DNA of 55,658 bases from Actinomycetota bacterium. GTDB taxonomy: Bacteria > Actinomycetota > UBA4738 > HRBIN12. The notes below the pieces were generated by a model. The model was not told the origin of the DNA and ran no database searches. It saw nothing but the letters and a program-made list of their open reading frames with translations. Position numbers and translations under genes: made by a program. Where the stretch lies: assembly GCA_048594645.1 (NCBI GenBank), contig JBMDWR010000167.1:1-55658 (forward strand). The letters run 5' to 3'. Of the stretch, positions 3,694-27,105 are shown piece after piece; position 1 is the first letter of the stretch; each line of letters opens with the position of its first letter.

Positions 3694-3786
3694 CTAGGCT
3701 GTTGACTGGCGTCAAGCCAGGCGGTTCACTCGGCCTGCGTCTTGGCTGGAACGAAGCGCTTGCACTCCAAGGGAAGGGCGGGGACG

Positions 3787-7526: not shown

Positions 7527-7607
7527 GGCCGGCCGGCTCGTTCACGGACGGTGCCGAGGGCGGATCTCGACGGACCCCGGGTGGTGACAACGACCGACGT
7601 CGCCGCC

Positions 7608-10586: not shown

Positions 10587-10587
10587 A

Positions 10588-11508: not shown

Positions 11509-11536
11509 ACCTTGCCCTCCGGTCCGCGGGCCTGCC

Positions 11537-13069: not shown

Positions 13070-13102
13070 GCCCTCTTCCCCCCTTCGGGATCGGCCGAAC
13101 GA

Positions 13103-13124
13103 GGTATCTTGACGTTCAGATACG
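13103..13124. promoter_or_regulatory. palindromic operator copy 3 (GGTATCT-TGACGTTC-AGATACG)
   Basis: Lies 35 nt upstream of the SBP start in the divergent region shared with the UbiX-like gene. The 6-bp arms GTATCT/AGATAC are perfect. The full 20-mer is near-palindromic about its central C|G. Confidence 0.7.
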
Positions 13125-13195
13125 TTGGAAGTCAAGCCAGGGTCAGGCTCCTGACCAGGGCGAACGGTATCGGGGAGGGTAAACTGCCGGGCCTC

Positions 13196-13738
13196 GTGAG
13201 CCAACCGGACCGAAACGTCGCGAGCCAGCCCACGGCGACGCGACTCGTCGTCGGGCTGACCGGCATCGCCGACACGTGGATCGGGCTTCGCCTCCTCGAG
13301 ATGCTTCGGGGCACGGAGATCGAATCGCACGTCGTGATGTGCGGATGCGTTCGAACCGAGGACGCGCGCGCCGCCGACCGCGTGATGGACCTGTCCGACC
13401 GCACGTACGACGAGTGGAACCAGGCAGCGAAGATCTCGAGCGGGTCGTTCCTCACGCTCGGCATGGTGGTGGCGCCGTGCAGCGCTCGGTCGCTTCGGTC
13501 GATCGCGATGGGGTACGCCAACACGCTGATCCATCGAGCGGCAGACGTCACGATGAAGGAGGGTCGCCCTCTCGATCTCCTCGTCACGGACGGAACGCTC
13601 GCCCCCTCGGACCGCCGACACGTGGAGCGGCTGTCGAACGTCCCCGGGGTCCGGGTCCTGCCGACCATCGGATCGCCGGAGGACGTGCTCGCGCCCGTGC
13701 TCGAGCGGCTCGAGATCGCCGATCGGACGCCGACCTAG
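13196..13738 (+). CDS. UbiX/HFCD-fold flavoprotein paralog with degenerate cofactor motifs
   Basis: This is the C-terminal part of ORF 11330..13738. GTG 13196 is the first start after the intergenic region. RLVVGLTGIADTWIGLRLLEML...ISSGSFLTLGMVVAPCSARSL...LIHRAADVTMKEGRPL aligns with the canonical UbiX at 16801..17433. It lacks the G-x-[ST]-G-A loop and the MPPVPAFY segment. Confidence 0.65.
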   Translation: MSQPDRNVASQPTATRLVVGLTGIADTWIGLRLLEMLRGTEIESHVVMCGCVRTEDARAADRVMDLSDRTYDEWNQAAKISSGSFLTLGMVVAPCSARSLRSIAMGYANTLIHRAADVTMKEGRPLDLLVTDGTLAPSDRRHVERLSNVPGVRVLPTIGSPEDVLAPVLERLEIADRTPT

Positions 13739-14904
13739 GCCGCGGCGCCGGCATCGGGCACCGAGGCGCGCACGCGAGCGCGCCGCGCGAGGAGCGCGAG
13801 CAGCGCGGGAAGCACCGCCGCCACGATCAGGGTCGGCTGCAGCCCGAACACCGACGCCCCCACGCCGATCGCCGCACTCATCAGCGCCCCGAGACCGATC
13901 TGCAGCGAGCGGAACAGACCGAGCATCGCACCACGGCTCCCGAACGCGTCCAGTGCCAAGACGTTGGCGACCGGTCCGAGCGCCGCGACGCCCGCGGCGA
14001 ACGCGGTGGCCGCGACGAGCGCCAGTGCGACGAACGGCACGGACGTCCAACCGGCGCCGACGATGCCGAGCAGCAATCCCACCTCGCCCGCCGTCCGCAG
14101 CGCGCCGATCCGATCGGACCGGTGCCCGGCGACCAGCTTCGACGGGACCGAGAACACCCGCGCCACGGCGAGCGCGATGGCGGCCCCCGACGCCGTCATG
14201 CCCCACGAGGAGACGGCGAAGGTTGGCAGGAACGAGATGGTGCCGTACTGCGAGGCGGCGGCGAGCCCTCCGACGGCGAGCGGCGTCCCCAGGGCCCTGT
14301 GCCAGCCCTCGGTCGACTCGGTGCGGCGCGGTGGCCGGCCGGGAAGCTTCGCCAGGGACACGGCACCGGCGGCCACGGCCGAGAGCGCGGCGGACCCGAG
14401 GAACGCGCCGTGCCAGTCGCCCGAGCTCCAGATCGCGGCGAGCAGGGCGGCCGAGGCGAGCCCCGCCGAGAACGAGATGCCGAAGAACCCCATCGCCAGG
14501 CCGCGCCTCCCCGAGCCCGCGAGGTCGGCTGCCGAGTACAGCCCCGACGCGAAGTACAGCCCCGAGCCGCCTCCGAGCAAGCCCTGCGCCACGAGGAACA
14601 TCGCGGTCGAGTCCGACGCGGCCGCAACGAGGCTTCCCACCGTCGCGACCGAGAGGCCGAGCAGGGCTCCCGCCTTGGGGCCGATGTGCGACAGGGCGAA
14701 GCCGCCTCCGATGTTGCCGACCGAGATCGAGGCCGCGAGGAGCGCGAAGACGAAGCCGGCCTGCGACGTCTCCAGACCGAGATCGTGACGGGCCGCCGGG
14801 AAGATCGGGGCGAGAAGGGAGTCCGAGCAGGTCGCGGCCAGGTACCCGGCATTGATGGCGGCGAAGGAGGCCCTGCGCCCCCACCCGTTGCGTTCCGTCG
14901 TCAC
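13735..14904 (-). CDS. MFS transporter
   Basis: ~389 codons of ORF 13735..15369, highly hydrophobic with a 12-TM-like periodicity. An MFS loop-like motif GHRSDRIG lies in the C-terminal half, between predicted TM segments. GTG 14904 is proposed as the start, but no good RBS was seen and the start is uncertain. The stop overlaps the convergent UbiX-like stop by 4 nt. Confidence 0.8.
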   Translation of the reverse strand: MTTERNGWGRRASFAAINAGYLAATCSDSLLAPIFPAARHDLGLETSQAGFVFALLAASISVGNIGGGFALSHIGPKAGALLGLSVATVGSLVAAASDSTAMFLVAQGLLGGGSGLYFASGLYSAADLAGSGRRGLAMGFFGISFSAGLASAALLAAIWSSGDWHGAFLGSAALSAVAAGAVSLAKLPGRPPRRTESTEGWHRALGTPLAVGGLAAASQYGTISFLPTFAVSSWGMTASGAAIALAVARVFSVPSKLVAGHRSDRIGALRTAGEVGLLLGIVGAGWTSVPFVALALVAATAFAAGVAALGPVANVLALDAFGSRGAMLGLFRSLQIGLGALMSAAIGVGASVFGLQPTLIVAAVLPALLALLARRARVRASVPDAGAAA

Positions 14905-14969
14905 GTGGGCCGTCCCGTGCCGCTCGTTCCCATCCTCCGGCGGACGGCCCGCCGCCGCCCGGGATGCAC

Positions 14970-14991
14970 GGTATCTTACCGTCGAGACATC
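14970..14991. promoter_or_regulatory. palindromic operator copy 4, degenerate right arm (GGTATCT-TACCGTCG-AGACATC)
   Basis: Lies in the divergent region between the MFS gene (start ~14904) and the PNPOx-like gene (start 15004). The left arm and the CGT spacer core are conserved. The right arm has a two-base change (AGACAT versus AGATAC). Confidence 0.5.
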
Positions 14992-15003
14992 GGGAGGCGC
15001 CGC

Positions 15004-15474
15004 GTGACCCGCGAGATCAGCGATCGACTGCCGGACCAGGTGATGCGCGCCTTCGACGGACGCGACGTCGAGGGGAAGATCGGCATCGCGTACCTGTTGA
15101 TGACGGTCGATCCGGAAGGCACGCCACGCCCGTGCATGCTCTCGGCCGGTGAGATCTTGGCGCCGGACGACCGGCATCTGCGCGTCGCGCTGTGGCCGGG
15201 CACCAACACGACGCGCAACCTGACGAACGGCGGCCCCGTCCTGCTGTGCTACGTGGCGCCGGGGACGACGCTGTACGTGCGCGCGCGCCCGCGCGCGCTC
15301 GGCCGGTCGGAGGAGGTGCGCCTCGAACGCTTCGAGCTGGACGTGGTCTCCGTGGAGACGGACGCCCATCCCGGGATGCCGGTGACGAGCCCCATCACGT
15401 TCGAGGTGGCGTCGGGCGACGTCGCGAAGGTCGCCGACTCATGGCGCGAGCAGCTCCGCGCGCTCGCGGAATGA
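15004..15474 (+). CDS. pyridoxamine 5'-phosphate oxidase-like (FMN/F420-binding split-barrel) family protein
   Basis: GTG 15004 lies 6 nt after GGGAGG. The pattern ...IAYLLMTVDPEGTPRPCMLSAGEI...LRVALWPGTNTTRNLTNGGPVLL... follows the PNPOx-like pattern (TVD-x2-G-x-P ... s-x-t-x-NL). The assignment rests on pattern recognition only. Confidence 0.55.
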   Translation: MTREISDRLPDQVMRAFDGRDVEGKIGIAYLLMTVDPEGTPRPCMLSAGEILAPDDRHLRVALWPGTNTTRNLTNGGPVLLCYVAPGTTLYVRARPRALGRSEEVRLERFELDVVSVETDAHPGMPVTSPITFEVASGDVAKVADSWREQLRALAE

Positions 15475-15484
15475 CGAACGCGTT

Positions 15485-16804
15485 TCATGATGCGAGCGCC
15501 TCGCGGGCGCGGTCGATCCACCATCCCAGGCACGCCACCGCGTTCCGGCGCGCGCGCGGGTCCGGGTTCATCACGGCCTCGAACCCGAAGTAGCACCCCG
15601 CCTGGACCAACGTTGCGAACAGGCACGCGCGCAGGGCGTCCCGGTCGACCCGCGCAGCCCCCTCGATCGCCGCGTCCAGGACGGGGGCCGGACCTCCCGG
15701 ATGGGCGGTCCCGAGGTTGAAGGCCAGCCACGTGAGGTCAAGGGCCGGCGGAGCGACGGCGGCGAGCCCCCAGTCGATCAAGGTCACGCGTGGCCCGCGG
15801 AAGCCGGCGTTGGCGGGCCGCAGGTCGCCGTGCACGAGCGACGCCGGATGCGAACGCAGCCGGTCGGCGAGCTCCCTCGGGCGCTCCAACGCCGACGCGA
15901 GCGCGTCCGCGACGTCATCGGGAACGACCCTCGGCAGGAGCTCCCAGCCGCGGCCGATCACCTTCGGCGCCAGGTCGGATCCGGCGCGCTCGCGCTCGGC
16001 CGTCGCGGGTGCGAAGGCGAGCAAACGGTCCTCCAGGGTGCACAGGGAGCCTTCGCTCGGCGGCTCGACGTGGGCCTGCATCCCTGCGACGGCACCGGCG
16101 AGGCGGCGGATGCCAGCGATCGACGTTCGCCGCGGGGCGAGCCCGGTCGACAGATCTCGCATCACGACGATGCGTTCCCCTCCGTGCTCGATCACGCCGA
16201 CGACGCCGTGGTCGACGAACGCGCCGACCCGCTCGAGCACGCCCGCCCGCCACAACCACGCCTCCCGTCCGCGGTCGTGGGTCGCTCGCTGGAGCCAGCT
16301 GCCCAGGGGCCGCAGACGCTTCGCGAAGAAGACGGAGCCGTCGACCGTCTTCCACCGTTCGACGAGCGTGCCCGAGATGCCCGGTTCGACCTGCCAGCGC
16401 CGCACCACGCGCGGCAGTCCGAGCCCGCGGACGTCCGGCAGCGGCGGCAGCTCGGGCAGCGGTGCTCGCTCGGGAAGCACGACGTGCACCGCGATGGTCC
16501 CGTCCCGGAGGTGGACCAGATGACGACGACGGCGCCGCGTTCCGTCCTCGAGCCGCGACTCGATCCGAACGATCGCGCCGCCGGGCACGGCTCGGCTGCT
16601 CAACACCCCGGGACGTCCCGGCAGGAACAGCGAGCCGAGCGATGCGTGCACGGCGTCGTGGCCGTCGATCCTGACCGACCGTTCCGGGACGTTGACGTCG
16701 AGCGCCGCATCGGACGCGTACAGTGCCGCCAGGCCGGTCGCGTCGCCTGCGGTTGCCCGCACCAGGAGCCGTTCGAGGCTGCCCGGCGCCGGGTGGTGCG
16801 TCAC
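15485..16804 (-). CDS. two-domain protein: N-terminal NTF2/SnoaL-like domain fused to an APH/choline-kinase-type phosphotransferase domain
   Basis: GTG 16804 overlaps the ubiX stop (GTGA). The N-terminal ~110 aa (LERLLVRATAGDATGLAALYASDAALDV...) are NTF2-like. The C-terminal part has the kinase catalytic loop LVHGDLRPANAGF and the metal-binding LIDWG motif of the PF01636-type fold. Confidence 0.75.
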   Translation of the reverse strand: MTHHPAPGSLERLLVRATAGDATGLAALYASDAALDVNVPERSVRIDGHDAVHASLGSLFLPGRPGVLSSRAVPGGAIVRIESRLEDGTRRRRRHLVHLRDGTIAVHVVLPERAPLPELPPLPDVRGLGLPRVVRRWQVEPGISGTLVERWKTVDGSVFFAKRLRPLGSWLQRATHDRGREAWLWRAGVLERVGAFVDHGVVGVIEHGGERIVVMRDLSTGLAPRRTSIAGIRRLAGAVAGMQAHVEPPSEGSLCTLEDRLLAFAPATAERERAGSDLAPKVIGRGWELLPRVVPDDVADALASALERPRELADRLRSHPASLVHGDLRPANAGFRGPRVTLIDWGLAAVAPPALDLTWLAFNLGTAHPGGPAPVLDAAIEGAARVDRDALRACLFATLVQAGCYFGFEAVMNPDPRARRNAVACLGWWIDRAREALAS

Positions 16805-17433
16805 GAGCTCGCGTCGCCTCCGCCGCCGGGTGCGATCCGCGGCGTCCAGCCCTGCCTCCGACGTTCGCCCCATCGACGGACGAGGTCGTGGCCCACCCCG
16901 AAGTGGTCCAGCATCCGCCCCACGGTGTGGTCGACCATCTCGTCGAGCGACCTCGGCCTGGCGTAGAACGCTGGCACCGGCGGCATGACGATCGCCCCGG
17001 CCTTCGCGACGGCCAGCATGTTCTCGAGGTGGATCACCGAGAACGGTGACTCGCGCACGAGGAGCAGCAGGCGTCTCCCCTCCATCAGGGAGACCTCGGC
17101 AGCGCGGTGGACGAGGTTCTCCGTGATCCCGTGGGCCACGGCCGCGAGCGACTTCATGCTGCACGGGGCCACGATCATCCCGCGGGTGAGGAGGTCGCCG
17201 GACGCCGGCGGTGCATCCAGATCGTCCTCGCTGTAGACGTGGTCGGCGAGCGCCCGCACGTCCGACGGCTTCCACGAGGTCTCTGCGGCGATCGTCTTCT
17301 CCGCCCAGCGGCTCACGACCAGGTGGGTCTCGATCCCTTCGGCACCCAGGACCTCGAGCGTTCGGATGCCGTAGATCGCCCCCGTGGCCCCGGTGATCGC
17401 CACGACGATCGGCAGGTGATCGTCGCCGGACAT
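16801..17433 (-). CDS. ubiX: UbiX family flavin prenyltransferase (prFMN synthase)
   Basis: 210 aa. IVVAITGATGAIYGIRTLEVL, MIVAPCSMKSLAAVAHG, VHRAAEVSLMEGRRLLLLVRESP and IVMPPVPAFYARP are all canonical UbiX/Pad1 motifs. Confidence 0.9.
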   Translation of the reverse strand: MSGDDHLPIVVAITGATGAIYGIRTLEVLGAEGIETHLVVSRWAEKTIAAETSWKPSDVRALADHVYSEDDLDAPPASGDLLTRGMIVAPCSMKSLAAVAHGITENLVHRAAEVSLMEGRRLLLLVRESPFSVIHLENMLAVAKAGAIVMPPVPAFYARPRSLDEMVDHTVGRMLDHFGVGHDLVRRWGERRRQGWTPRIAPGGGGDASS

Positions 17434-17451
17434 CTCACGCGAGGGAGCGGC

Positions 17452-17829
17452 TCAGGACGACACGTCCTGACCGTAGGGTCCGCTCGTGATGCCGTAGATG
17501 TTGCCATCGGGCCCGCGGAAGTGCGCCCAGGCGAACTCGCCCCAGGTGTGGTTCGCGTGGAGGAACTCGACACCGCGCCCTTCGAGCTCCGAGCGAGCCG
17601 CATCGAGGTCGTCCACGAGGAACTCCACCACGATGCCGCCCTTGAACTCGGCGTAGTGCTCGTGCCCGGGCGCGAAGACCTCGACCCAGTCGCCGCTCGA
17701 GACGCGCAGAACCGTGAGCGTGTCCGACGCGTGGAACGTGGACAGCCCCAGCACGTCACGGAAGAACGTCACCGTCTCGTCGTACCGGTCGGTCGCCGTC
17801 CCGGCCCACACGATCCCCTTGATCTCCAC
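17452..17829 (-). CDS. VOC (glyoxalase/bleomycin resistance/dioxygenase) family protein
   Basis: GTG 17829 is preceded by GAGGAGGGA, 18 nt after the large-subunit stop. It is a 125-aa single VOC module (IKGIVWAGTATDRYDETVTFFRDVLGL...VEFLVDDLDAARSELEGRGVEF). Confidence 0.8.
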   Translation of the reverse strand: MEIKGIVWAGTATDRYDETVTFFRDVLGLSTFHASDTLTVLRVSSGDWVEVFAPGHEHYAEFKGGIVVEFLVDDLDAARSELEGRGVEFLHANHTWGEFAWAHFRGPDGNIYGITSGPYGQDVSS

Positions 17830-17846
17830 CGCTGCTCCCTCCTCGT

Positions 17847-20282
17847 CTACGATCCTGTGGCCGCGTCGGCCTGTTCGATCAGTGCTCGCAGCTGCGCCGG
17901 AGACACGGGAACGTGGTCGATCCGCACGGCGAGCGGCCGCAAGGCGTCCATGATCGCGTTGGCGATGGCCGCCGGCGGCGAGACCGCCCCGCCCTCTCCG
18001 CACCCCTTGATCCCGAACGGGTTCAGCTCGCTCAGGAACACCTGGTGACCCACCTCGATCGGCGGAACCTCGGCCGCCGTCGGCAACAGGTAATCCATGT
18101 ACGTCCCCGTGAGCAGCTGCGCCTCGTCGTCGTACGCGACGTGCTCGTACAGCGCGTTGCCGACGCCGTGGGCCACGCCGCCCTGGATCTGACCCTCGAC
18201 CACGGTGGGGTTCAGCATCTGGCCGCAGTCGTCCACGGTGACGTACCGCAACAGACGGACGAACCCCGTCTCGGCGTCCACCTCGACGCCCACGACGTGC
18301 GTCGCGGAGGCGAACGTCACCGTCGGCGGCACGAAGTAGTACGTGACCTCCAGGCCAGGATCCTGTTCGGGCGGCAGGACGCTGCGGGGGCTCGGCTGCG
18401 CCGCCTTGGCAACCTGCGCCAACGTGAGCGAGCGGTCCGGCGAGCCGCGGGCCACCACCACGCCGTCGACGATGTCCAGGTCGGACCGGTCGGCCTCGAG
18501 CAGCTCGGCCGCGACCGTGAGCACCTTCTCGCGCACCATCCCGGCCGCGACGCCCACGGCCGATCCGGCCGTGACGGCGCTGCGGCTCGCGAACGTTCCG
18601 ATCCCGTGCGCGATCAGCGAGGTGTCGCCGCCGGTCACGGTGACGTCCTCCGGCCGGACGCCCAACTGGTCGGCGCAGATCTGCGAGAGCGTCGTCTCGA
18701 GGCCCTGCCCGTGCGGCTTCGCGCCGGTCGCGACCGAGACGTGACCGCTGGCGTCGACCCGGACGACCGCCCCCTCGTGGGGCCCGTAGCCGGACCCCTC
18801 CACGTAGGACGAGACGCCGACTCCCAGCCGCCGCCCCTGCGCTCTCGCGGCCTCCTGCTCGGCTCGGAACGCCTCGTACCCGAACAACTCGAGCGCCTGA
18901 TCGAGCTGCGCGGGGAAGTCGGCGCTGTCGTAGACGATGTCGACGCCGTCGCGGTACGGCATGCCCATCGCGTACGGCATCTGGTCGGGGCGGATCAGGT
19001 TCCGCCGCCGCACCTCGATCGCATCGAATCCCAGCTCGTGCGCCACGAGGCCGATCACGCGATCCATCACGAACGTGACCTCGGGCCGGCCGGCTCCGCG
19101 CACCGGCGTCACCGGGGCCTTGTTCGTGAGGACCGCGAGGCTCTCGACGCGCAGGTGGTCGATCGCGAACTGCCCGCGCAGGTGCGCGGCGGAGTTGTAG
19201 GAGACCGTGATCGCGTACGGGTTGTACGCGCCGGCGTCCATCAGGAAGCGGTCTCGGAGGGCAAGGATCCGTCCATCGTCGTCGAACGCGACCTCGATGT
19301 CGTGCAGCTGATCGCGAGCGTGACGCGTGTTGGCCAGGTTCTCCCGCCGATCCTCGAGCCAGCGGACGGGACGGCGCAGGTCCCGCGCGAGGAACGGGAT
19401 CAGGACGTCCTCCGGGAACATCCCGGTCCCGAAGCTTCCCCCCATGTCGGGGCCGATCACGTGCACGGCATCCGTCGGCATCCCAAGCATCTCGGAGATG
19501 AACGTGCGGACGAGGTGCGGACGCGCGTTCGCGTCCCAGACCGTCAGCCGGTCGCGACCCTCCTCGTACTGCGCCAGCACGCCACGCGGCTCCATCGCGT
19601 TGCCGGCGATCCGTCCCATCGACAGGCGTGCCTTCAGCGTTCGGGGCGCCTGGGCGAACACGGCGTCGGGGTCACCGGCCTGCACCGTGAAGCTCGTCTG
19701 CACGTTGTCGCCGAGCTCCGGATGGAGCACCGGCGCGTCGGGTGCGATCGCCTGTTGGGGATCTGCGACGACCGGGAGCGGATCGTAGTCGACCTCGATC
19801 AGCTCGAGCGCATCCTCGGCGATGTATCGGTCGATCGCGACCACCGCGGCGACCGGCTGACCGACCCAGGAGACCACGCCCTCGGCCAGCACCGGCATCG
19901 GACACGACTTCAGCGTCGGGCCGACCTTGTCCTTGAGCAGCTGCGAGATCTCGGTCCTCGCCGCCTCGACGAACGGCCCCATCTTGCCCTCGAGGTCGCC
20001 GTGCGTGACCACCGTGACCACGTCGCGGTGCTCGAGGGCACGCGACACGTCCATCGACGTCACCCGCGCGTGCGCGAACGGGCTCCGCAGGATCGCGACG
20101 TGCACCGTCCCCGGCAGCGCGATGTCGCCGACGTGCCGGGCCTTGCCGGTGATCAGCCGGGCGTCTTCCTTCCGCCGCAGGCGTTGACCGACGTAGGTGG
20201 GCGGCTTCACCTCGGGATGTGCGAGGCGGCGTTCCGGCCCGCGCGGGTCGGCTGGGGCGTGCGGGTGGGGGGTAACGCTCAC
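17847..20282 (-). CDS. xanthine dehydrogenase family molybdopterin-binding large subunit
   Basis: GTG 20282 overlaps the small-subunit stop (GTGA). It has YVGQRLRRKEDARLITGKARHVGDIALPG...VHVAILRS, the loop TPVRGAGRPE and the C-terminal FGIKGCGEGGAV with the conserved Glu. Length is 811 aa. Confidence 0.9.
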   Translation of the reverse strand: MSVTPHPHAPADPRGPERRLAHPEVKPPTYVGQRLRRKEDARLITGKARHVGDIALPGTVHVAILRSPFAHARVTSMDVSRALEHRDVVTVVTHGDLEGKMGPFVEAARTEISQLLKDKVGPTLKSCPMPVLAEGVVSWVGQPVAAVVAIDRYIAEDALELIEVDYDPLPVVADPQQAIAPDAPVLHPELGDNVQTSFTVQAGDPDAVFAQAPRTLKARLSMGRIAGNAMEPRGVLAQYEEGRDRLTVWDANARPHLVRTFISEMLGMPTDAVHVIGPDMGGSFGTGMFPEDVLIPFLARDLRRPVRWLEDRRENLANTRHARDQLHDIEVAFDDDGRILALRDRFLMDAGAYNPYAITVSYNSAAHLRGQFAIDHLRVESLAVLTNKAPVTPVRGAGRPEVTFVMDRVIGLVAHELGFDAIEVRRRNLIRPDQMPYAMGMPYRDGVDIVYDSADFPAQLDQALELFGYEAFRAEQEAARAQGRRLGVGVSSYVEGSGYGPHEGAVVRVDASGHVSVATGAKPHGQGLETTLSQICADQLGVRPEDVTVTGGDTSLIAHGIGTFASRSAVTAGSAVGVAAGMVREKVLTVAAELLEADRSDLDIVDGVVVARGSPDRSLTLAQVAKAAQPSPRSVLPPEQDPGLEVTYYFVPPTVTFASATHVVGVEVDAETGFVRLLRYVTVDDCGQMLNPTVVEGQIQGGVAHGVGNALYEHVAYDDEAQLLTGTYMDYLLPTAAEVPPIEVGHQVFLSELNPFGIKGCGEGGAVSPPAAIANAIMDALRPLAVRIDHVPVSPAQLRALIEQADAATGS

Positions 20283-20764
20283 GCGGGCTCCCGCCCGGCC
20301 GCCGCGCGCACCGCCTTGACGATGTTCTGGTAGCCGGTGCAGCGGCACAGGTTGCCTGAGAGCCTCGCCCGGACGGCGTCCTCGTCGTCGACGCCGGGGG
20401 CCCCTTCGGCCAGGTACTCGGTGACCGCGAGCATGAACCCCGGCGTGCAGAAGCCGCATTGCAGCGCGTGGTTGTCGGTGAACGCCTGCTGGACCGGGCT
20501 CAGCGTCCCGTCGGGCTCGGCGAGACCCTCGACCGTGACGAGCTCGTGCCCCTGCGCTTGGACCGCGAACATCAGGCACGAGCGGACCGAACGGCCGTCC
20601 AGCAGGATCGTGCATGCGCCGCAGACGCCGTGCTCGCACCCGAGATGCGTTCCGGTGAGCCCGAGGACGTCGCGCAGGAAGTCCGCGAGCGTCATCCGCG
20701 GCTCGGCCAGACCGGAGCGCTCGGTCCCGTTGACGTTCAGCGTGATCTCGATCTCGCCCGTCAT
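20279..20764 (-). CDS. (2Fe-2S)-binding small subunit of a molybdenum hydroxylase
   Basis: ATG 20764 overlaps the FAD-subunit stop (ATGA). It has the two cluster motifs C-x4-C-x2-C (CEHGVCGAC...C) and CGFCTPG...C-x-C (NLCRCTGY). Confidence 0.92.
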   Translation of the reverse strand: MTGEIEITLNVNGTERSGLAEPRMTLADFLRDVLGLTGTHLGCEHGVCGACTILLDGRSVRSCLMFAVQAQGHELVTVEGLAEPDGTLSPVQQAFTDNHALQCGFCTPGFMLAVTEYLAEGAPGVDDEDAVRARLSGNLCRCTGYQNIVKAVRAAAGREPA

Positions 20765-21639
20765 GCGGCGGCTCCCTGAGCGCGCTCGTACGCCCGTGCC
20801 AGCGTGCGCCTGACGAGCACCTTCGCCACGTGTCTCCGGTAGTCCGAGGATCCGTGGAGGTCGGACATCGGCTCGATCTCTGGCTCGATCGCCTCGGCGG
20901 CGGCGGCGAATGTCTCCTCGCCGGGCGCGGCGCCGGCGAGCACCGCCTCGGCCGCGGTGGACCGCACCGCGGTGTCGCGGACGCCGATCAGCACGACACG
21001 TCCCTGCCCGACGGTACCGGCATCGGTGAGCGACAGGAGCGCCCCCGCGCCCGCGATTGCGAAGTCGCCGTGGCGACGCGCCAGCTCCGTGTACGCGGAC
21101 CCGATCCGGCCCACAGGGAGCCGAAGCCGGACCTGCGTCAGGATCTCGTCGGGACGCAGGGTCGTCGTGAAGTAGGACTCGAACAGCTCGCTCCCGGCGA
21201 TCGTTCGGACGCCCTGGACGCTGCGCGCCTCGACCTCGCCGTCGAGGGCGAGCACGAGCGACGGCCATTCCGCGGCGGAGTCTGCGTGCGCGATGCTGCC
21301 ACCCACGGTTCCGCGGTTCCTGATCGCGACGTGCCCGATCAGCGACACGCCGTCGGCCAGCATCGCGCAACGTTCGCGCATGCCGGGGAACAGCTCGACG
21401 TCGCGATGCCGTGCGAGCGCGCCGATCGTGAGCGTGTCGCCGTCCAGCGCGACCCCGTCGAGACCCGGCACCCGATTCACGTCGACGAGGATCTCGGGCG
21501 CCGCGAGCCGGAAGGCGAGCAGCGGGACGAGGCTCTGACCGCCGGCGATCACCTTGGCGTCATCGCCGCGTTCGCCGAGCAGCCGGACGACCTCATCGAG
21601 GGTCTCCGGCGCGGCGTACTCGAACGGTGCAGGCTTCAT
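20761..21639 (-). CDS. FAD-binding medium subunit of a molybdenum hydroxylase (CoxM/XdhB-like)
   Basis: 292 aa. MKPAPFEYAAPETLDEVVRLL...KVIAGGQSLVPLL and AIRNRGTVGGSIAHAD are typical FAD_binding_5/CO_deh_flav_C motifs. Confidence 0.9.
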   Translation of the reverse strand: MKPAPFEYAAPETLDEVVRLLGERGDDAKVIAGGQSLVPLLAFRLAAPEILVDVNRVPGLDGVALDGDTLTIGALARHRDVELFPGMRERCAMLADGVSLIGHVAIRNRGTVGGSIAHADSAAEWPSLVLALDGEVEARSVQGVRTIAGSELFESYFTTTLRPDEILTQVRLRLPVGRIGSAYTELARRHGDFAIAGAGALLSLTDAGTVGQGRVVLIGVRDTAVRSTAAEAVLAGAAPGEETFAAAAEAIEPEIEPMSDLHGSSDYRRHVAKVLVRRTLARAYERAQGAAA

Positions 21640-21706
21640 GGGACCGGCTGCTCCCCCAAGGTGGAGGCGCGGGCGGAACCTCTCCGGCCGCCCCCGCGCA
21701 CGACCC

Positions 21707-23176
21707 TCAGTCCATCCGCGTCTGTTTCCATAGGTCGCCGAACAGCCCGTCCAGGTCGACGTCGGAGACCCCGGGCGTCGAGATCTCGACCGGGAAGTCC
21801 GCCTTCCGCGTAGCGTCGATGCCCACCTTCGTCACGAGGTGTGACCCGCCGGCCGGATCGTACGAGGCGGGATCGAGGGGCGACCCACGCGCGTGGGGCA
21901 CGACGAAGGCGTCCTGATGGAACCGCACCCGCTGGGCGATCGCGTGCCAGACCGCCGCATCGTTGGTGATGTCGACGTCCTCGTCGACGACCACGACGTA
22001 CTTGAGGAACGGGTCGGCGGCGAACGCCGCCATGGCGGCGTTCTTCGGGTCACCCTCGATCAGCTTCTCCATCTGCACGTAGCAGATGTACCGGCAGCGC
22101 CCGGATGGTGGGACGTAGGCCGCTTTCACGCCTCCGGATGCCAGACGGCAGGCGCGGTAGATCATCGAGTTCCGCGTCACGCCGGACAGCAGGAGGTTGT
22201 CCCAGTGGCCGACGAACGAGCTCTGATAGTGAGCGTTCCTGCGCATCGTGATCGCCTTGACGTAGACGACCGGGTTGTTGCGTTCGGGACCGTACGTGCC
22301 CGGGTACTCGCCGAACGGCGCCTCGCGCTCTCGCTCCGTCGGATGGATCTCGCACTCGAGCACGATCTCCGCCCGGGCCGGAACCTCGACGTCGATCGTC
22401 TCGCACTTCACCATCTCCAGCGGCTCTCCGAGGATCGCGCCGGCCATCGCGAACTCGTCGACGTCGATGCTCGTGAACGAGAGGAACCCGAGCTCCACGG
22501 CCGGATGGAGGCCGATCGCCACCGCCATCTCCGTCGGTCGGCCGTGCTTCAGGTTCTTCTGCATGATGTAGTGCCCGTGCGCCGTCTCGGAGATCTGGAT
22601 CCCGAACTTGTTCCGGCTCTTGGCCTGCAAGCGGTAGATCCCGGCGTTGCGGATGCCGGTGTCGGGGTCCTTCATGATCTCGTAGCCGAGCGTGATGTAC
22701 CTGCCGACCTCGTCCTCGTACCCGGGATCGACGGCGCCGCCGTCGAGCTCGTGGTACTTGAACATCGGGAGCTTGAAGACGTCGACGTCGTCGCCCTTCA
22801 CGATCACCTCTTTGCAGGGTGCGTCGGCGGGCTCGATCATGACGGGTTCGATGCCCTGGTCCTCCCGAGCCATGTACTCGAGGATGAAGTCCCTCGGCGT
22901 CGCGTCGATCGGCAGGCCGATCGCCATGGCCAGTCGCGGGAAGCTCGCGTGGACGTTCGTGACCGCAGGAAGGTCCGACCCTTTCACGTTGTCGAACACG
23001 ACCAGCGGGTATCGCCGCTCGTTCTCCAGGCGCCACAGGATCGCCAGCGGTTCGAAGATCGGGTCCACTTCCTGCTTCACGCGCAGGATCTCGTTCGGGT
23101 AGTACTTCTCGAGGAACCGGATGAAGGACTGCAGGTCCTTCCCGAGCTCCGCCTTCTGCTCAGGCGGCAGTGGCAT
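21707..23176 (-). CDS. ubiD: UbiD family (prFMN-dependent) decarboxylase
   Basis: ATG 23176 (MPLPPEQKAELGKDL...) lies 4 nt after GAGGGGGGA. The track ORF starts at TTG 23194. Family patterns are present: IRNAGIYRLQ, ETAHGHY and REAPFGEYPGTYG. Confidence 0.9.
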   Translation of the reverse strand: MPLPPEQKAELGKDLQSFIRFLEKYYPNEILRVKQEVDPIFEPLAILWRLENERRYPLVVFDNVKGSDLPAVTNVHASFPRLAMAIGLPIDATPRDFILEYMAREDQGIEPVMIEPADAPCKEVIVKGDDVDVFKLPMFKYHELDGGAVDPGYEDEVGRYITLGYEIMKDPDTGIRNAGIYRLQAKSRNKFGIQISETAHGHYIMQKNLKHGRPTEMAVAIGLHPAVELGFLSFTSIDVDEFAMAGAILGEPLEMVKCETIDVEVPARAEIVLECEIHPTEREREAPFGEYPGTYGPERNNPVVYVKAITMRRNAHYQSSFVGHWDNLLLSGVTRNSMIYRACRLASGGVKAAYVPPSGRCRYICYVQMEKLIEGDPKNAAMAAFAADPFLKYVVVVDEDVDITNDAAVWHAIAQRVRFHQDAFVVPHARGSPLDPASYDPAGGSHLVTKVGIDATRKADFPVEISTPGVSDVDLDGLFGDLWKQTRMD

Positions 23177-23221
23177 CTGTCCCCCCTCGTTCAAGGCCCG
23201 TCCGCGCAGCAGCGAGCCGGA

Positions 23222-23243
23222 GATATCTCAACGTCTAGATATC
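23222..23243. promoter_or_regulatory. palindromic operator copy 5 (GATATCT-CAACGTCT-AGATATC) overlapping a candidate promoter of the ubiD operon
   Basis: Perfect 7-bp arms, 46 nt upstream of the ubiD ATG. On the minus strand, TTGCAT (23264-23269), a 17-nt spacer and CATGAT (23241-23246) form a sigma-70-like promoter. Its -10 element overlaps the operator arm. Confidence 0.7.
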
Positions 23244-23286
23244 ATGCACATCGCCTGGGACGCATGCAACCCGCATGGCGGTGGCC

Positions 23287-24519
23287 TCAGTCACCCTCGG
23301 GTTCGAGCAGCCGCACGCCGCGTGCTTCGCGCCGCCGGCCGACTTGGAGCACCTTCCCGACGAGGTCGGCCACGGGGAGGTCCCCGGCCTCCTCCACCCG
23401 CGTCCCGTCCAGCCGGACGCCACCGCCCGCGATCAGGCGTCGCGCCTCCGACGAGGACGAGGCGACACCGAGCGACGTGAGCAGGCGCGGCAGCCATACC
23501 ATCCCCTCGACGACGGCAGCGGCCGGTATGCGCGCCCCGTCGACGTCCCGAGGCACTGTTCGGTCCGCATGCGCTTCGTTGAACCGCTGCTCCGCCTCCG
23601 CACCGGCGCGCTCGCCTCGATACAGGTCGACGAGCTCTCGCGCGAGACGCTTCTTCTCCTCCCATGGGTCGAGCGAGGCCTCGCGCAGGCCGGCCGCGAC
23701 GCGTTCGGCCTCGGCCGGATCGCGGAAGAAGTCGAGCGTCAGCAACCGGTACTCGGCGATCGCCTCGTCCGGGATCCGTGTGAGCTTGCCGAACATGTCG
23801 TCCGGATCGTCGGTGATCCCGACGTAGTTGCCGAGCGACTGGCTCATCTTCTGCACGCCGTCGGTACCCACGAGGAGCGGCATCGTGAGGGCGACCTGGG
23901 GGTCCTGGCCGTACTCGCGCTGCAGGTCCCGCCCCACCAGGAGGTTGAACGTCTGGTCCCGGCCGCCGAGCTCGACGTCCGCCTCGACGGCGACGGAGTC
24001 CATGCCCTGGAGCAGCGGATAGAGGAACTCCAAGATCGAGATCGGCTTGCCCTGCGCGTACCTCTTGGCGAAGTCGTCGCGCTCGAGCATGCGGGCCACC
24101 GTGTACGAGGCGGTCAGCCGAAGGATCTCCTCCATGCCCAACGGCTCCAGCCATTCGGCGTTGAACCGGACCTCGGTGAGATCGCGGTCGAGCACGATCC
24201 AGAACTGGTCGAGCAGCCGGTCGGCGTAGCCGCGCACCTCCTCCTTCGACAGGCGTGGGCGCGCGTCGGTCCGGCCGGACGGGTCGCCCACCCTGGCGGT
24301 GAAGTCGCCGACGATCAGCACCGGGACGTGCCCCGCGTCCTGGAACTGCCTGAGCTTGCGAAGCACGACCGCCCACCCGAGCGTGACCTCGGGGGCGGTC
24401 GGGTCGAGCCCGAGCTTCACCCGAAGCTGCCGGCCGAGCTCGAGCTTGCTCCGGAGGCCCTCGGCGGGCACGACCTCGGCCCGCCCGGCGAGCAGCATCG
24501 GCAGGTCGTCGGGACCCAT
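23287..24519 (-). CDS. tyrS: tyrosine--tRNA ligase homolog (Thermus-type, with C-terminal S4-like domain), non-canonical signature motifs
   Basis: 410 aa, collinear with bacterial TyrRS (LGLDPTAPE..., LIVGDFTARVGDPSGR, YPLLQGMDSVA...ELGG.DQ.FNLL, C-terminal S4-like ...ARRLIAGGGVRLDG). TLGW stands at the HIGH position (24373-24384) and KMSQS at the KMSKS position (23836-23850). Confidence 0.85.
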   Translation of the reverse strand: MGPDDLPMLLAGRAEVVPAEGLRSKLELGRQLRVKLGLDPTAPEVTLGWAVVLRKLRQFQDAGHVPVLIVGDFTARVGDPSGRTDARPRLSKEEVRGYADRLLDQFWIVLDRDLTEVRFNAEWLEPLGMEEILRLTASYTVARMLERDDFAKRYAQGKPISILEFLYPLLQGMDSVAVEADVELGGRDQTFNLLVGRDLQREYGQDPQVALTMPLLVGTDGVQKMSQSLGNYVGITDDPDDMFGKLTRIPDEAIAEYRLLTLDFFRDPAEAERVAAGLREASLDPWEEKKRLARELVDLYRGERAGAEAEQRFNEAHADRTVPRDVDGARIPAAAVVEGMVWLPRLLTSLGVASSSSEARRLIAGGGVRLDGTRVEEAGDLPVADLVGKVLQVGRRREARGVRLLEPEGD

Positions 24520-24636
24520 CGCCGCGAAGGCTAGCAGCGGGAACCTCAGCGGTTCGGGGACGCTTGGGGTCCAACGCTCCGGACGGCGACCCGGGCATCA
24601 CCTGGAACGCCGCGATCGTGCGAAGATCGCCTCATC

Positions 24637-27105
24637 ATGGCCGCCCGCTCGCGGACCCTCGTGGTCGGCGTGTTCGTCTTCGTCCTCGCCGCCTCGGCCT
24701 GCGACCTCCCGACGCTGCGGGAGGCTCGCGAAGATGCGGACGCTCTGCCCGAGACGTCGTTCATCTACTCGGCCGACGGCGCGCTGATCACGTCGCTACA
24801 TGCCGGCGAGAACCGGGTGCCGGTGCGATCGACGAAGATCCCGGAGGTCGTCCGCAACGCGGTCGTCGCGATCGAGGATCAGCGGTTCTACGACCACACG
24901 GGCGTCGACCTGCGGGCGCTCCTTCGCGCCGCGTACAGAGACGTCACGACGGGCGAGGTGGTCGAGGGCGGGTCCACGATCACGCAGCAGCTCGTCAAGA
25001 AGCTCTACGTTGGCGACGAGAAGACCGTCGCCCGCAAGGTCCGTGAGGCATACCTAGCGTGGCAGCTCGAAGAGCGGATGAGCAAGGAGCGCATCCTCAC
25101 CCGGTACCTCAACACCGTCTACTTCGGGAACGGCGCCTACGGGATCCGAGCGGCGGCCGAGACCTACTTCGACATCGAACCGCTCGAGCTCAACCTAGCG
25201 CAGTCGGCGCTGCTCGCCGGCCTGATACGCGCGCCGGTCGACTACGACCCGGTGACGCACCCGGTGAGGGCCGAGCGCCGTCGCGACCACGTCCTCGAGC
25301 TGATGCTCGGGCTCGGCACGATCGACCAGGCCGCGTACCAGCGTGCGACCTCGTCCCGGATCAAGCTCCATCTCCGCCAGGACGAGATGCGCTACGCGGC
25401 GCCCTATTTCGTCGACTACGTGAAGGAGTGGTTCCTGTCGAACCCGCGGTTCGGCGAGACGCCCGAGGAGCGATACGACCTCCTGTTCAAGGGCGGGCTT
25501 CGCATCGTGACGACGTTGGACATGAGGATGCAGCGGGCGGCCGAGCGCGCGATCTCGTCGGTGCTCACCGAACCCGGCGACCCCTACGGTGCGTTGACGG
25601 CGATCGACCCCCGGACGGGGCAGGTCCGTGCGATGGTCGGCGGGCGCGACTACTGGAACGAGCATGACCGTTTCGCGCGGATCAACCTCGCGACGGGCGG
25701 GAGCACGGGAAGGCAGGCGGGTTCGGCGTTCAAGCCGTTCGCCCTCGTCGCGGCGCTCGAGCACGGCATCACGCGTTCCCAGCCGCTGAACGGCTCGAGC
25801 GCCCACATCCTCCTCGACAACGGGGCGTACTGGGATCCTCGCAACGCCGAAGGGAGCGGCTACGGCACGATCTCGCTCGAGAGTGCGACGGTGAACTCCG
25901 TGAACATCGCGTACGCGAACCTCCTGGAGGTGATCGGCGACGGCGACACCTACGCCGGTGCGGCGGCGGTCGTCCAGACGGCCGAACGCATGGGGATCCG
26001 CTGCTGCCCGCGAACGACCGAGCCGAACGAGCCGCTCGCGGGCGTCCCTTCGGCCGTCCTGGGCGTGAACGAGGTGAGCACGCTCGAGATGGCCTCGGCC
26101 TTCGGCACGCTTGCGTACCTCGGTCGCCACGTGCAGCCGATCCCCGTGATCTCGATCACGAACTCGGACGGCGAGCAGATCTACCAGGCACCGCCGAAGA
26201 TCCACCAGGTCGTCGAACCGTCGATCGCCGCGGAGGCCATCGACGTCCTGAAGGGTGTGGTGCAGTCCGGAACCGGCGTCGGCGCCAACATCGGCCGGCC
26301 CCAGTTCGGCAAGACCGGGACGGCGCAGAACGCCAGCGATGCGTGGTTCGTCGGCGCAGTCCCACAGCTGTCGACGGCGGTGTGGGTCGGCTTCCCCGAG
26401 GGGCAGATCCCGATGTGCTGCGGGAACGTGCGGATCTCGACCGTGTATGGGGGAACCTGGCCCGCGACGATCTGGCGGACGTTCATGCTCGCGGCCACCC
26501 GTAACATGCCGGTCAAGGAGTTCGGGACGGCGCCGGAGGTCGACATCGTGACGCTCCGTATCGACGTCACGCGCGGGTGCCTGGCGAACCGGTTCACGTC
26601 GCCGGACGACATCCAGGTCTTCCGGTACGTGGCCGGCTCCGAACCCACGCTCGAGATCTGCACGGAGCCGTCGTCCTATCAGCGCTTGGTGGTGCCGTCG
26701 GTCGTGGGGCTCCAGCGACAGGCGGCCGTCTCCACGCTACGCGCGGCGGGATTCACCGTGGCGATAATCTCCGCCCCATCAAACGAACCGGTGGGGACGG
26801 TGATCGCGCAAGACCCCCTCAGTGGCTCAGGCCTGATCCAGACGGGAACCGTCACGATCACCGTCTCGGAGGGCGAGCTCGAGCCCGAGCGCGTCGCCGT
26901 CCCCGACGTCGTTGGGATGACCCGCGGGGCGGCGGAGGCGGCGCTCGGGCGCGCCGGGTTCAAGGTGTCGGTGTCGATGTCGCAGGAGTGTGACCCAGCC
27001 GATCCCTCGTGCGACTACCGACAGGGCGTGGTGTGGTCGCAGACCCCGAGCGGCGGGGCGCGGGCCGAGGAGGGGTCCACGGTCAGGATCGTCGTCAACC
27101 CGTAG
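24637..27105 (+). CDS. class A penicillin-binding protein (glycosyltransferase GT51 + transpeptidase) with two C-terminal PASTA domains
   Basis: 822 aa with an N-terminal membrane anchor. GT51 motifs AIEDQRFYDHTGVD and GGSTITQQL are present. The transpeptidase motifs are SAFKPF (SxxK) and KTGT. There are two PASTA-like repeats (VPSVVGLQRQAAVSTLRAAGF..., VPDVVGMTRGAAEAALGRAGF...). Confidence 0.9.
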   Translation: MAARSRTLVVGVFVFVLAASACDLPTLREAREDADALPETSFIYSADGALITSLHAGENRVPVRSTKIPEVVRNAVVAIEDQRFYDHTGVDLRALLRAAYRDVTTGEVVEGGSTITQQLVKKLYVGDEKTVARKVREAYLAWQLEERMSKERILTRYLNTVYFGNGAYGIRAAAETYFDIEPLELNLAQSALLAGLIRAPVDYDPVTHPVRAERRRDHVLELMLGLGTIDQAAYQRATSSRIKLHLRQDEMRYAAPYFVDYVKEWFLSNPRFGETPEERYDLLFKGGLRIVTTLDMRMQRAAERAISSVLTEPGDPYGALTAIDPRTGQVRAMVGGRDYWNEHDRFARINLATGGSTGRQAGSAFKPFALVAALEHGITRSQPLNGSSAHILLDNGAYWDPRNAEGSGYGTISLESATVNSVNIAYANLLEVIGDGDTYAGAAAVVQTAERMGIRCCPRTTEPNEPLAGVPSAVLGVNEVSTLEMASAFGTLAYLGRHVQPIPVISITNSDGEQIYQAPPKIHQVVEPSIAAEAIDVLKGVVQSGTGVGANIGRPQFGKTGTAQNASDAWFVGAVPQLSTAVWVGFPEGQIPMCCGNVRISTVYGGTWPATIWRTFMLAATRNMPVKEFGTAPEVDIVTLRIDVTRGCLANRFTSPDDIQVFRYVAGSEPTLEICTEPSSYQRLVVPSVVGLQRQAAVSTLRAAGFTVAIISAPSNEPVGTVIAQDPLSGSGLIQTGTVTITVSEGELEPERVAVPDVVGMTRGAAEAALGRAGFKVSVSMSQECDPADPSCDYRQGVVWSQTPSGGARAEEGSTVRIVVNP

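Follow-up and report, generated by a model that had tools for sequence, protein, structure and literature searches.

Organisation of the core operon

The window analysed here is a stretch of 55,658 nucleotides (nt), with a GC content of about 70%, from an uncultured soil Actinomycetota bacterium related to Gaiellales (contig JBMDWR010000167.1). On its minus strand, at positions 15485-23176, seven genes join a decarboxylase of the UbiD family, which depends on prenylated flavin mononucleotide (prFMN), to a three-subunit molybdenum (Mo) hydroxylase. Third-position GC together with Pfam and NCBIfam scans divide the window into two parts: a catabolic island from position 1 to about 23250, and then housekeeping genes, from tyrS (23287) on, for PBP1, PolX, argF, pheST, infC, the rib operon, rpe, rsmB, fmt, def, priA and coaBC. 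An initial annotation, made from the sequence alone, had proposed the gene order UbiD-FAD-2Fe-2S-Mo-VOC-UbiX-kinase, and each of the seven products was recovered by Pfam and NCBIfam at the coordinates then given:

21707-23176, minus strand: UbiD, prFMN-dependent decarboxylase of the HmfF branch, N-R-R subclade (three UbiD domains and TIGR00148)
20761-21639, minus strand: FAD-binding medium subunit (Pfam FAD_binding_5 and CO_deh_flav_C)
20279-20764, minus strand: 2Fe-2S small subunit (Pfam Fer2_2 and Fer2)
17847-20282, minus strand: Mo hydroxylase large subunit, MoL1 (three Pfam domains)
17452-17829, minus strand: VOC/glyoxalase-fold protein, single domain (Pfam Glyoxalase)
16801-17433, minus strand: UbiX flavin prenyltransferase (TIGR00421)
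15485-16804, minus strand: SnoaL-like and APH-type kinase, last gene of the operon (Pfam APH and SnoaL_2)

The spacing described in that annotation is exact. Neighbouring genes overlap by 4 nt at three junctions (FAD/2Fe-2S, 2Fe-2S/MoL1 and UbiX/kinase), and the remaining gaps measure 67 nt between UbiD and the FAD subunit, 17 nt between MoL1 and VOC (taking as VOC start the GTG at 17829, which has a GGAGG ribosome-binding site) and 18 nt between VOC and UbiX. Judged from its sequence, the stretch 15485-23176 most likely forms the core operon within an island that spans 23 kb or more and behaves as one repressor-controlled regulon.

The UbiD decarboxylase

The UbiD protein contains the domains PF20695, PF01977 and PF20696, that is, the complete three-domain UbiD architecture. 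It scores 317 bits against TIGR00148 (cutoff 244.85) and lies far below the cutoffs of the UbiD and MqnL equivalog models of NCBIfam. We looked for tight clustering with a decarboxylase of known substrate and did not find it: the closest solved structure is PtHmfF of Pelotomaculum thermopropionicum (6h6v, E-value 4e-82), at only 38% identity and with its furan-specific His replaced by Asn. Much weaker matches follow to VdcC, E. coli UbiD, AnInD, AroY, PhdA (7pda, 8e-30), HudA and Fdc1. The motifs EAPFGE and RN..YR are intact and align with VEGPFGE and RN..HR of PtHmfF; we take them to form the E(D)-R-E catalytic network, equating them with E277/R173/E282 of Fdc1.

Substrate recognition in HmfF reportedly relies on a triad, H296-R304-R331, and an engineered H296N variant is said to shift the enzyme toward pyrrole substrates. 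The residues H, R and R do fall on these positions of the 6h6v sequence, in all three cases. In the window UbiD the triad reads N327-R335-R362, so that both carboxylate-binding arginines of HmfF are kept and His296 becomes Asn. The N-R-R pattern occurs in all of the 120 best homologues (60-93% identity) and extends down to one representative at 55% identity; the proteins closest to PtHmfF, and HmfF of an hmf cluster on a Caballeronia plasmid, have H-R-R. The furan specificity of HmfF hinges on this His, which corresponds to Asn318 of HudA, a pyrrole-2-carboxylate decarboxylase (PMC7976604), and PtHmfF itself already tolerates pyrrole-2-carboxylate. The kept arginines hint at a substrate of dicarboxylate type, and the Asn hints at a nitrogen in its ring. 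Many homologues are labelled '2,5-furandicarboxylate decarboxylase 1' by JGI; this label is probably an over-annotation, since the triad is N-R-R and not H-R-R.

The molybdenum hydroxylase and its second large subunit

The large subunit combines Ald_Xan_dh_C, MoCoBD_1 and MoCoBD_2 domains and is accompanied by the medium FAD subunit and a small 2x[2Fe-2S] subunit. The island holds two further genes of this system:

5208-7526, plus strand: second Mo large subunit, MoL2 (Pfam and NCBIfam)
1905-2537, plus strand: CoxG-type accessory protein of Mo hydroxylases (Pfam COXG, 6e-19)

The two large subunits are 47% identical to each other, and both are closest to quinoline 2-oxidoreductase (Qor), 6-hydroxypseudooxynicotine dehydrogenase (Kdh) and mycobacterial CoxL, which places them in the Qor/Kdh/form-II clade. 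The best structures for MoL1 are Qor (6e-154), M. smegmatis CoxL (1e-148) and Kdh (2e-147); for MoL2 the closest is Qor (1t3q, 6e-150). Their active-site loops read PVRGAGRPE (MoL1) and PYRGAGRPE (MoL2), and the GEGG motif with the catalytic Glu is present in both. The loop of xanthine-dehydrogenase type reported by the initial annotation is therefore confirmed, and inspection of the same loops in both proteins revealed no VAYRCSFR loop with the copper-binding Cys of carbon monoxide dehydrogenase (CODH). The CODH equivalog models remain below cutoff for the large subunits, as does the best NCBIfam model, aerobic CODH group-5. A form I aerobic CO dehydrogenase was accordingly ruled out, on the missing loop and the sub-cutoff CODH models.

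MoL1 is 35% identical to HmfA and the 2Fe-2S subunit 58% identical to HmfC of the Caballeronia plasmid. The CoxG gene is homologous to the C-terminal CoxG-like domain of that HmfA (positions 12028-15060 of the plasmid locus) and forms a separate gene in the window.

Operators and regulator

The claim that the island is a regulon, also made in the initial annotation, is borne out by a 22-bp palindromic operator, GRTATCTNNACGTNNAGATAYC, of which the window contains five copies, at 3672, 5111, 13103, 14970 and 23222, against 0.03 expected by chance in dinucleotide-preserving shuffles. All five fall in promoter gaps, where the distance to the start codons of one or two divergently transcribed units is 13-76 nt:

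3672-3693: operator copy 1, divergent promoter gap between the genes for a luciferase-like oxidoreductase (LLM) and a MarR-family regulator
5111-5132: operator copy 2, divergent promoter gap SDR/MoL2, 0 mismatches
13103-13124: operator copy 3, divergent promoter gap between an ABC importer and the flavoprotein gene Flav2
14970-14991: operator copy 4, divergent promoter gap between an MFS transporter and a PhdC-like gene
23222-23243: operator copy 5, 46 nt upstream of the UbiD start codon, perfect palindrome arms
3742-4374, plus strand: MarR-family regulator (Pfam MarR_2), with orthologues in the syntenic loci L003, L018 and L023-L025

Numbers with the prefix L designate the related loci compared here, L089 being the Caballeronia plasmid and L090 an Ensifer canadensis plasmid. 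Eight related loci carry the operator motif at equivalent positions, and the distant loci have no copy of it; copy 3 has a counterpart in the corresponding gap of L001, and copy 5 is matched in L013 and L014 by sites that precede UbiD by about 50 nt. The pattern is that of a MarR regulon, in which one palindrome recurs in the promoter of each controlled unit and the cluster includes a marR gene, and the product of 3742-4374 is probably the repressor that binds these sites. Copies 3 and 4 stand in the promoter gaps of the ABC importer and the MFS transporter, which the initial annotation had assigned to the same regulon.

Conservation and synteny

The genes of the operon are strongly co-localised in other genomes, a point on which the initial annotation had made its reading depend. 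According to tblastn-based synteny, a Mo large subunit adjoins UbiD in nearly all of the roughly 30 loci (UbiD identity 66-93%) long enough to judge, namely L001-L006, L008-L028, L087 and L088; L007 departs from this pattern, and some contigs end too early to tell. Most actinobacterial loci of sufficient length keep the order UbiD-FAD-FeS-MoL1-VOC-UbiX. The whole regulon is contiguous in L003 and in the Gaiella loci L023 and L025, as LLM-HyuA/B-MarR-SDR-MoL2-UbiD-FAD-FeS-MoL1-VOC-UbiX-(PhdC-like)-MFS-(Flav2)-DppAB, and in these three MoL2 stands immediately upstream of UbiD.

A scan of 185,579 species genomes found UbiD relatives of at least 64% identity in metagenome-assembled genomes (MAGs) only: 79-91% in other Actinomycetota, 76-77% in Gaiella/Gaiellaceae, 68% in Binatia and 67% in Thermodesulfobacteriota. 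A tblastn search of plasmids of cultured bacteria gave no relative above 34% identity. In the other phyla, a TatD-like hydrolase and an OCD/mu-crystallin reductase accompany the MoL-UbiD pair; going by their families, these are again a cyclic-amide hydrolase plus a reductase, supplied by different proteins.

Several arrangements were recorded alongside. The non-actinobacterial N-R-R members (L006 6330-13472, L026 3065-13356 and L028 6429-12783) share a module MoL-UbiD-OCD/mu-crystallin-MutY, preceded by a TenA/haem-oxygenase-like gene in L006 and L028 and with the TatD-like hydrolase after UbiD in L006 and L026; in none of the three loci is the module close to genes for FAD or FeS subunits or UbiX. 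In L026 (Thermodesulfobacteriota), an open reading frame (ORF) of 1429 amino acids without Pfam match (5545-9834, plus strand) lies between the Mo large subunit and UbiD, beside an IS110 transposase, and may be spurious or an insertion. Contig JAKBTL010000040.1 bears two UbiD paralogues of the clade about 12 kb apart (L019 4420-5859 and L020 10001-11440), each beside a Mo large subunit. In the sublineage of the window (window 23287-27105; L008, L087 and L088) the operon is in each case a direct neighbour of tyrS and of a class A penicillin-binding protein (PBP) gene, while in Gaiella its location differs and the regulon is contiguous, which suggests that the island was rearranged or inserted. 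The Ensifer canadensis plasmid (L090, 7322-11966), another match of the plasmid search, combines a dihydroorotase-family protein, a Zn hydrolase, UbiD and UbiX without a Mo enzyme, and was set aside as an unrelated dihydroorotase-UbiD type of cluster.

These data bear on the most sceptical explanation, which holds that the adjacent functions are unrelated or work in a biosynthetic or carboxylating direction, either as a form-II CODH-like enzyme next to a quinone-biosynthesis UbiD or as a kinase-activated carboxylase in the manner of phenylphosphate carboxylase. It could draw on the CODH group-5 model being the best, if sub-cutoff, NCBIfam match of the large subunits, on the kinase coupled to UbiX and on the reversibility of UbiD reactions. 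We regard it as most improbable in view of the translational coupling, the common operator and the synteny kept across several phyla. Most loci of the clade also lack the kinase, and the importers and the lactamase in the regulon point to catabolism. The CO dehydrogenase and quinone-biosynthesis readings were both rejected, on the absent copper loop and on the UbiD scores below the equivalog cutoffs, respectively.

Genes for the prFMN cofactor

UbiX scores above the cutoff of its model (249 bits against TIGR00421, cutoff 108.9) and is 53% identical to HmfG. Two plus-strand genes add to it:

15004-15474, plus strand: PhdC-like prFMN oxidative maturase (AlphaFold2 model, Foldseek, profile searches, synteny)
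13196-13738, plus strand: Flav2, truncated UbiX-like flavoprotein (Pfam Flavoprotein)

The first of these had been listed as a PNPOx-like pathway gene, an assignment that has to be replaced: on model and profile evidence, 15004-15474 encodes a predicted PhdC-type prFMN maturase. An AlphaFold2 model built from an alignment of 68 sequences reached a mean predicted local distance difference test score (pLDDT) of 94.9 (single-sequence input gave only 50), and its top nine Foldseek matches in the PDB are all PhdC (TM-score 0.70-0.74, E 6e-9 to 6e-8), with 23-25% identity over the full length (149-157 columns aligned). Profiles of 4 and of 68 homologues likewise match only PhdC structures in the PDB (E 5e-4 and 3e-3). 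PhdC is characterised by an HpaC-like barrel with a C-terminal helix, by Glu47 and by a strictly conserved C-terminal ExW motif (Glu136). The equivalent of Glu47 (E50) and the Trp of the ExW motif (W147) are invariant in the 68 homologues; two positions ahead of this Trp, the four syntenic sequences have D, R, E or S, with D-S-W in the window. Given this variation at the glutamate of ExW, details of the chemistry may deviate from those of PhdC. The gene adjoins UbiX or the UbiD operon in the window and in L001, L003, L005, L008, L010-L013, L023, L025 and L088.

Flav2 matches UbiX/VdcB over profile positions 1-147 of 184, with 95 bits (below cutoff) and without the C-terminal quarter, and is conserved beside the MFS gene in many related loci.

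Transport and accessory genes

The remaining genes of the island are the following:

1-144, plus strand: 3' end of HyuA (hydantoinase/oxoprolinase A subunit), cut at the window edge, matching the HyuA C-terminus of L003
141-1889, plus strand: HyuB, beta subunit of an enzyme of the ATP-dependent lactam hydrolase type (Pfam Hydantoinase_B, 1e-152)
2568-3626, minus strand: luciferase-like oxidoreductase LLM (Pfam Bac_luciferase)
4328-5083, minus strand: short-chain dehydrogenase/reductase, SDR (Pfam adh_short_C2, 5e-59)
7608-13069, minus strand: Dpp/Opp-type ABC importer with two ATPases, two permeases and a family-5 binding protein (11537-13069) (Pfam)
13735-14904, minus strand: MFS transporter (Pfam MFS_1), syntenic

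The end of HyuA overlaps the start of HyuB by 4 nt. HyuB is closest to an N-methylhydantoinase-like protein (7hk5, 1e-67) and to caprolactamase beta (6yra, 3e-56; NF050157 below cutoff), and carboxylases score much lower against it than lactam hydrolases. LLM orthologues are present in L003, L020 and L023, and SDR orthologues stand at the corresponding position in L003, L023 and L025. In L003, the F420 biosynthesis gene fbiC is close by, and an aminotransferase and a glutamate dehydrogenase lie beside LLM-HyuAB. The ABC importer is syntenic in L001, L005, L010, L016, L023, L025 and L088, the best NCBIfam matches of its binding protein being of NikA/Opp5A/GsiB type, all below cutoff; the MFS transporter gave weak matches to lactate and oxalate/formate MFS models.

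Searches of the PDB and NCBIfam returned no informative match for VOC, which is kept between MoL1 and UbiX in most actinobacterial loci and which we suspect to be an isomerase or tautomerase. The same searches were uninformative for the kinase. In the window it is a coupled gene of the operon, as originally described. Only nine SnoaL+APH kinase homologues were found among 5.8 billion proteins. In the four cases with context (window, L008, L087 and L088) the gene directly follows UbiX, in operons abutting tyrS-PBP; it is absent from Gaiella-type loci and missing in most loci of the clade. Across these four loci the kinase is 42-46% identical, against 91% identity between the UbiD proteins of L008 and the window. 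For these reasons (nine homologues only, a single-sublineage context and the discrepancy in identity) its distribution marks it as an accessory gene of one sublineage and not part of the core of the system.

Since operator sites fell inside two over-long ORFs, gene models were corrected as follows: MoL2 starts at 5208 (not 4632), the SDR gene occupies 4328-5083 (minus strand), the MFS gene 13735-14904 and the small plus-strand gene 15004-15474. In the housekeeping part, an FMN riboswitch (RF00050, 103 bits) lies at 40968-41096 on the minus strand, upstream of ribD, and the listed ribD ORF (39804-41078) therefore begins too early. A 560-amino-acid ORF at 33938-35620 (minus strand) carries SpoU rRNA methylase domains as well as a HisKA domain; probably ORF calling ran two genes together, or else the fusion is an unusual one.

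Comparison with known systems

The nearest precedent, already named in the initial annotation, is the hmf cluster of Cupriavidus basilensis HMF14, in which HmfFG is the decarboxylase of 2,5-furandicarboxylic acid (FDCA) and HmfABC the furoyl-CoA dehydrogenase. The canonical hmf cluster on the Caballeronia plasmid, found in the plasmid tblastn search, served as reference and control. In both systems, an HmfF-branch UbiD with its own UbiX and a three-subunit FAD/2Fe-2S/Mo hydroxylase are united in one cluster, both carboxylate-binding arginines are conserved and a CoxG module is present (fused to HmfA in hmf). The logic would also be alike, in that a carboxyl beside the heteroatom is removed and that carbon is then hydroxylated (FDCA to furoate, then 5-hydroxylation). 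The differences are numerous: (i) Asn takes the place of His296 in UbiD, and identity is 32-38% to HmfF and 35% to HmfA (32-35% to the HmfF and HmfA of the reference plasmid); (ii) the regulator is MarR instead of LysR and the host belongs to Actinomycetota instead of Pseudomonadota; (iii) the window has in addition the PhdC-like maturase, MoL2, VOC, an F420-type LLM, SDR, HyuAB and the kinase; and (iv) it has no CoA ligase, enoyl-CoA hydratase or GMC oxidase. Indeed, HmfD (furoyl-CoA synthetase) and HmfE (hydratase) of the reference plasmid gave no tblastn match in the window at E <= 1e-3, and Pfam scans of the island genes, in which Flav2 was represented by the ORF 13001-13738, revealed no AMP-binding or ECH domain. 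The analogy thus stands as far as working logic goes and fails as membership in hmf, on the gene content compared here; the system would differ from hmf in needing no CoA activation, and its regulon has no recognisable oxygenase.

A genuine furan cluster for 5-hydroxymethylfurfural (HMF), furfural or FDCA, with UbiD and UbiX acting as HmfFG and the Mo enzyme as an HmfABC-type furoyl-CoA dehydrogenase, is consequently improbable in our judgement. HmfF is the closest characterised UbiD, the JGI names agree with this explanation and the subunit set is the same as HmfFG plus HmfABC; against these points stand the clade-wide Asn where canonical HmfFs have the furan-specific His, the low identities, the missing HmfD and HmfE and the different accessory genes (HyuAB, LLM, VOC and PhdC-like).

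A second precedent, to be added to the one originally cited, is the lumazine/pterin cluster I of Cupriavidus sp. LA-1, with LuDH, DHLI, XCDC and UbiX (PMC12391406). It too places a three-subunit Mo hydroxylase acting on an N-heterocycle and a prFMN UbiD/UbiX pair in one inducible cluster, and its Mo enzyme LuDH hydroxylates twice, before ring contraction and decarboxylation (PMC12391406). Could the window be an actinobacterial variant of it, in which the Mo enzyme would be a lumazine dehydrogenase and UbiD would convert xanthine-8-carboxylate to xanthine? The same paper describes this pairing of enzymes and reports variant clusters with unusual Mo subunits in Actinomycetota. The lumazine route needs, however, an amidohydrolase_2 6,7-dihydroxylumazine isomerase, a GTP-binding helper and a pterin/cytosine-type deaminase, the first two always occurring together in such clusters (PMC12391406), and the Pfam scans of the genes in 1-23250 (Flav2 again as the 13001-13738 ORF) revealed no amidohydrolase_2, CobW-type GTPase or deaminase domain. 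In addition, the published decarboxylase (LA1_0150) stands apart from the HmfF sequences in its tree (PMC12391406), while the window UbiD is closest to HmfF. We consider this variant highly improbable; the lumazine cluster is set apart here by its published description.

The phdABC operon of Mycolicibacterium fortuitum (phenazine-1-carboxylate decarboxylase, UbiX and the prFMN maturase PhdC; PMC13040415) also encodes UbiD, UbiX and a PhdC-fold maturase together. It differs in that PhdA is a distant UbiD and that no Mo hydroxylase is present; the window maturase, at 23-25% identity and without a conserved ExW glutamate, is moreover transcribed divergently, from its own operator-bearing promoter.

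The architecture of large, medium and small subunits is shared with Qor and Kdh, the best relatives of both large subunits. These two enzymes hydroxylate beside a ring nitrogen, with oxygen taken from water. Unlike them, the island has two large-subunit paralogues for one pair of medium and small subunits, and its hydroxylase genes are embedded in a UbiD operon. The known catabolism of dipicolinate (dip cluster) is monooxygenase-based and needs no Mo cofactor; being oxygenase-based and Mo-cofactor-independent, a dip-type route does not account for the locus. In the literature searched, there was no pathway matching UbiD with pyridine- or pyrrole-dicarboxylates, nor hydantoinase/oxoprolinase with molybdenum, and the gene set was not described. 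The combination of a prFMN decarboxylase and a Mo hydroxylase in a heteroaromatic-acid cluster is known in kind already, the probable N-heteroaromatic route being what this literature did not contain.

Proposed pathway

The initial annotation had the system hydroxylate and decarboxylate a heteroaromatic or aromatic carboxylate, an interpretation that synteny, the placement of UbiD and the operators support. On the balance of the sequence evidence, we favour a regulon that degrades an N-heteroaromatic carboxylate by decarboxylation, Mo hydroxylation and a lactam route. Mo hydroxylases attack an unsubstituted C-H beside the ring nitrogen, and an α,α'-dicarboxylated heterocycle would therefore be protected until one carboxyl is gone. 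By analogy with the action of hmf on FDCA, decarboxylation that unmasks the hydroxylation site would explain well the constant pairing of UbiD with a Mo large subunit. Tentatively, the substrate may be such an α,α'-dicarboxylated N-heteroaromatic, in which both carbons beside the nitrogen are blocked by carboxyls; the leading guesses, none of them proven, are acids of dipicolinate or pyrrole-2,5-dicarboxylate type. With its N-R-R triad, the sequence hints at more than was allowed by the earlier statement that the substrate cannot be deduced from it.

The route would comprise six steps. (i) The MFS transporter and the Dpp-type ABC importer would take up the substrate. (ii) UbiX would make prFMN and the PhdC-like protein would mature it oxidatively, in keeping with the family assignments of both. 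(iii) UbiD, whose family and intact catalytic motif are established above, would take off one alpha-carboxyl. (iv) The FAD/2Fe-2S/Mo hydroxylase would put a water-derived oxygen at the freed alpha C-H and yield a lactam tautomer, MoL2 probably using the same electron-transfer subunits for a second hydroxylation or a second substrate. (v) VOC, LLM (probably F420-dependent) and SDR would isomerise or reduce the ring. (vi) The ATP-dependent lactamase HyuAB would open the ring, giving 2-aminoadipate from a dipicolinate-type substrate, via 6-hydroxypicolinate and 6-oxopipecolate, or glutamate from a pyrrole-2,5-dicarboxylate-type substrate, via 5-oxoproline.

Several points weigh against this proposal. 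A single transcript for the operon is suggested by the overlaps and by a consensus scan of 14900-23400 that gave no promoter and no terminator, a result that says little at 70% GC, so that the evidence is weak. MoL1 and MoL2 probably share one FAD/FeS pair, because the island has one FAD gene and one FeS gene and none dedicated to MoL2, an argument from gene content only. LLM is probably F420-dependent on NCBIfam matches of which the best are of F420 class and all below cutoff. No role is assigned to VOC, Flav2 or the kinase, and the whole UbiD clade is known from MAGs only. Of the reported H296-R304-R331 triad and the reported pyrrole preference of H296N, PMC7976604 confirms the role of the His alone, and an Asn could serve many ring types. 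Finally, the sequence does not fix the order of decarboxylation and hydroxylation.

This last point leaves room for the reverse order, which we hold to be unlikely. Mo hydroxylases would then act first, once or twice, on a monocarboxylated N-heteroaromatic (nicotinate, isonicotinate or picolinate), and UbiD would decarboxylate the resulting hydroxy- or pyridone-carboxylate. Two paralogous large subunits would suit a pair of successive Mo hydroxylations like that in nicotinate and isonicotinate routes, the N-H of a pyridone could be bound by an Asn where HmfF recognises the heteroatom, and AroY and VdcC, which act on hydroxylated aromatic acids, are among the PDB matches of UbiD. Yet every member of the clade keeps both HmfF carboxylate-binding arginines, which fits a dicarboxylate better than a hydroxy-monocarboxylate, and the hmf precedent decarboxylates first. 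The place of UbiD at the head of the operon, and the reduction of the minimal conserved module to MoL-UbiD in other phyla, do not settle which step comes first.

Returning to decarboxylation first, it is possible, though far from assured, that the N-R-R clade represents a new natural substrate class of prFMN decarboxylases, the α,α'-dicarboxylated N-heteroaromatics (for example spore-derived dipicolinate), degraded by the oxygenase-free route of steps (iii) to (vi). This route would run in Actinomycetota of Gaiellales type and also in Binatia and Thermodesulfobacteriota, where other enzymes would take over downstream. If this were true, the operon-specific SnoaL-APH kinase, whose gene is coupled to that of UbiX, might have the dedicated task of providing the prenyl-phosphate co-substrate.

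Implications

Pathways combining a prFMN decarboxylase with a Mo hydroxylase turned up for furans (hmf) and lumazine only, and the system of the window would be the third. Its UbiD would be a natural counterpart of the engineered HmfF H296N variant and is a candidate for biocatalytic (de)carboxylation of N-heteroaromatics, while the complete cofactor toolkit of the locus (UbiX, PhdC-like maturase and UbiX paralogue) may help to activate recalcitrant UbiD enzymes. A defined operator, MarR and a binding protein offer a direct experimental route to the inducer. The UbiD-Mo system is conserved across several phyla and so far confined to uncultured bacteria, and knowledge of its substrate would link these lineages to a catabolic function.

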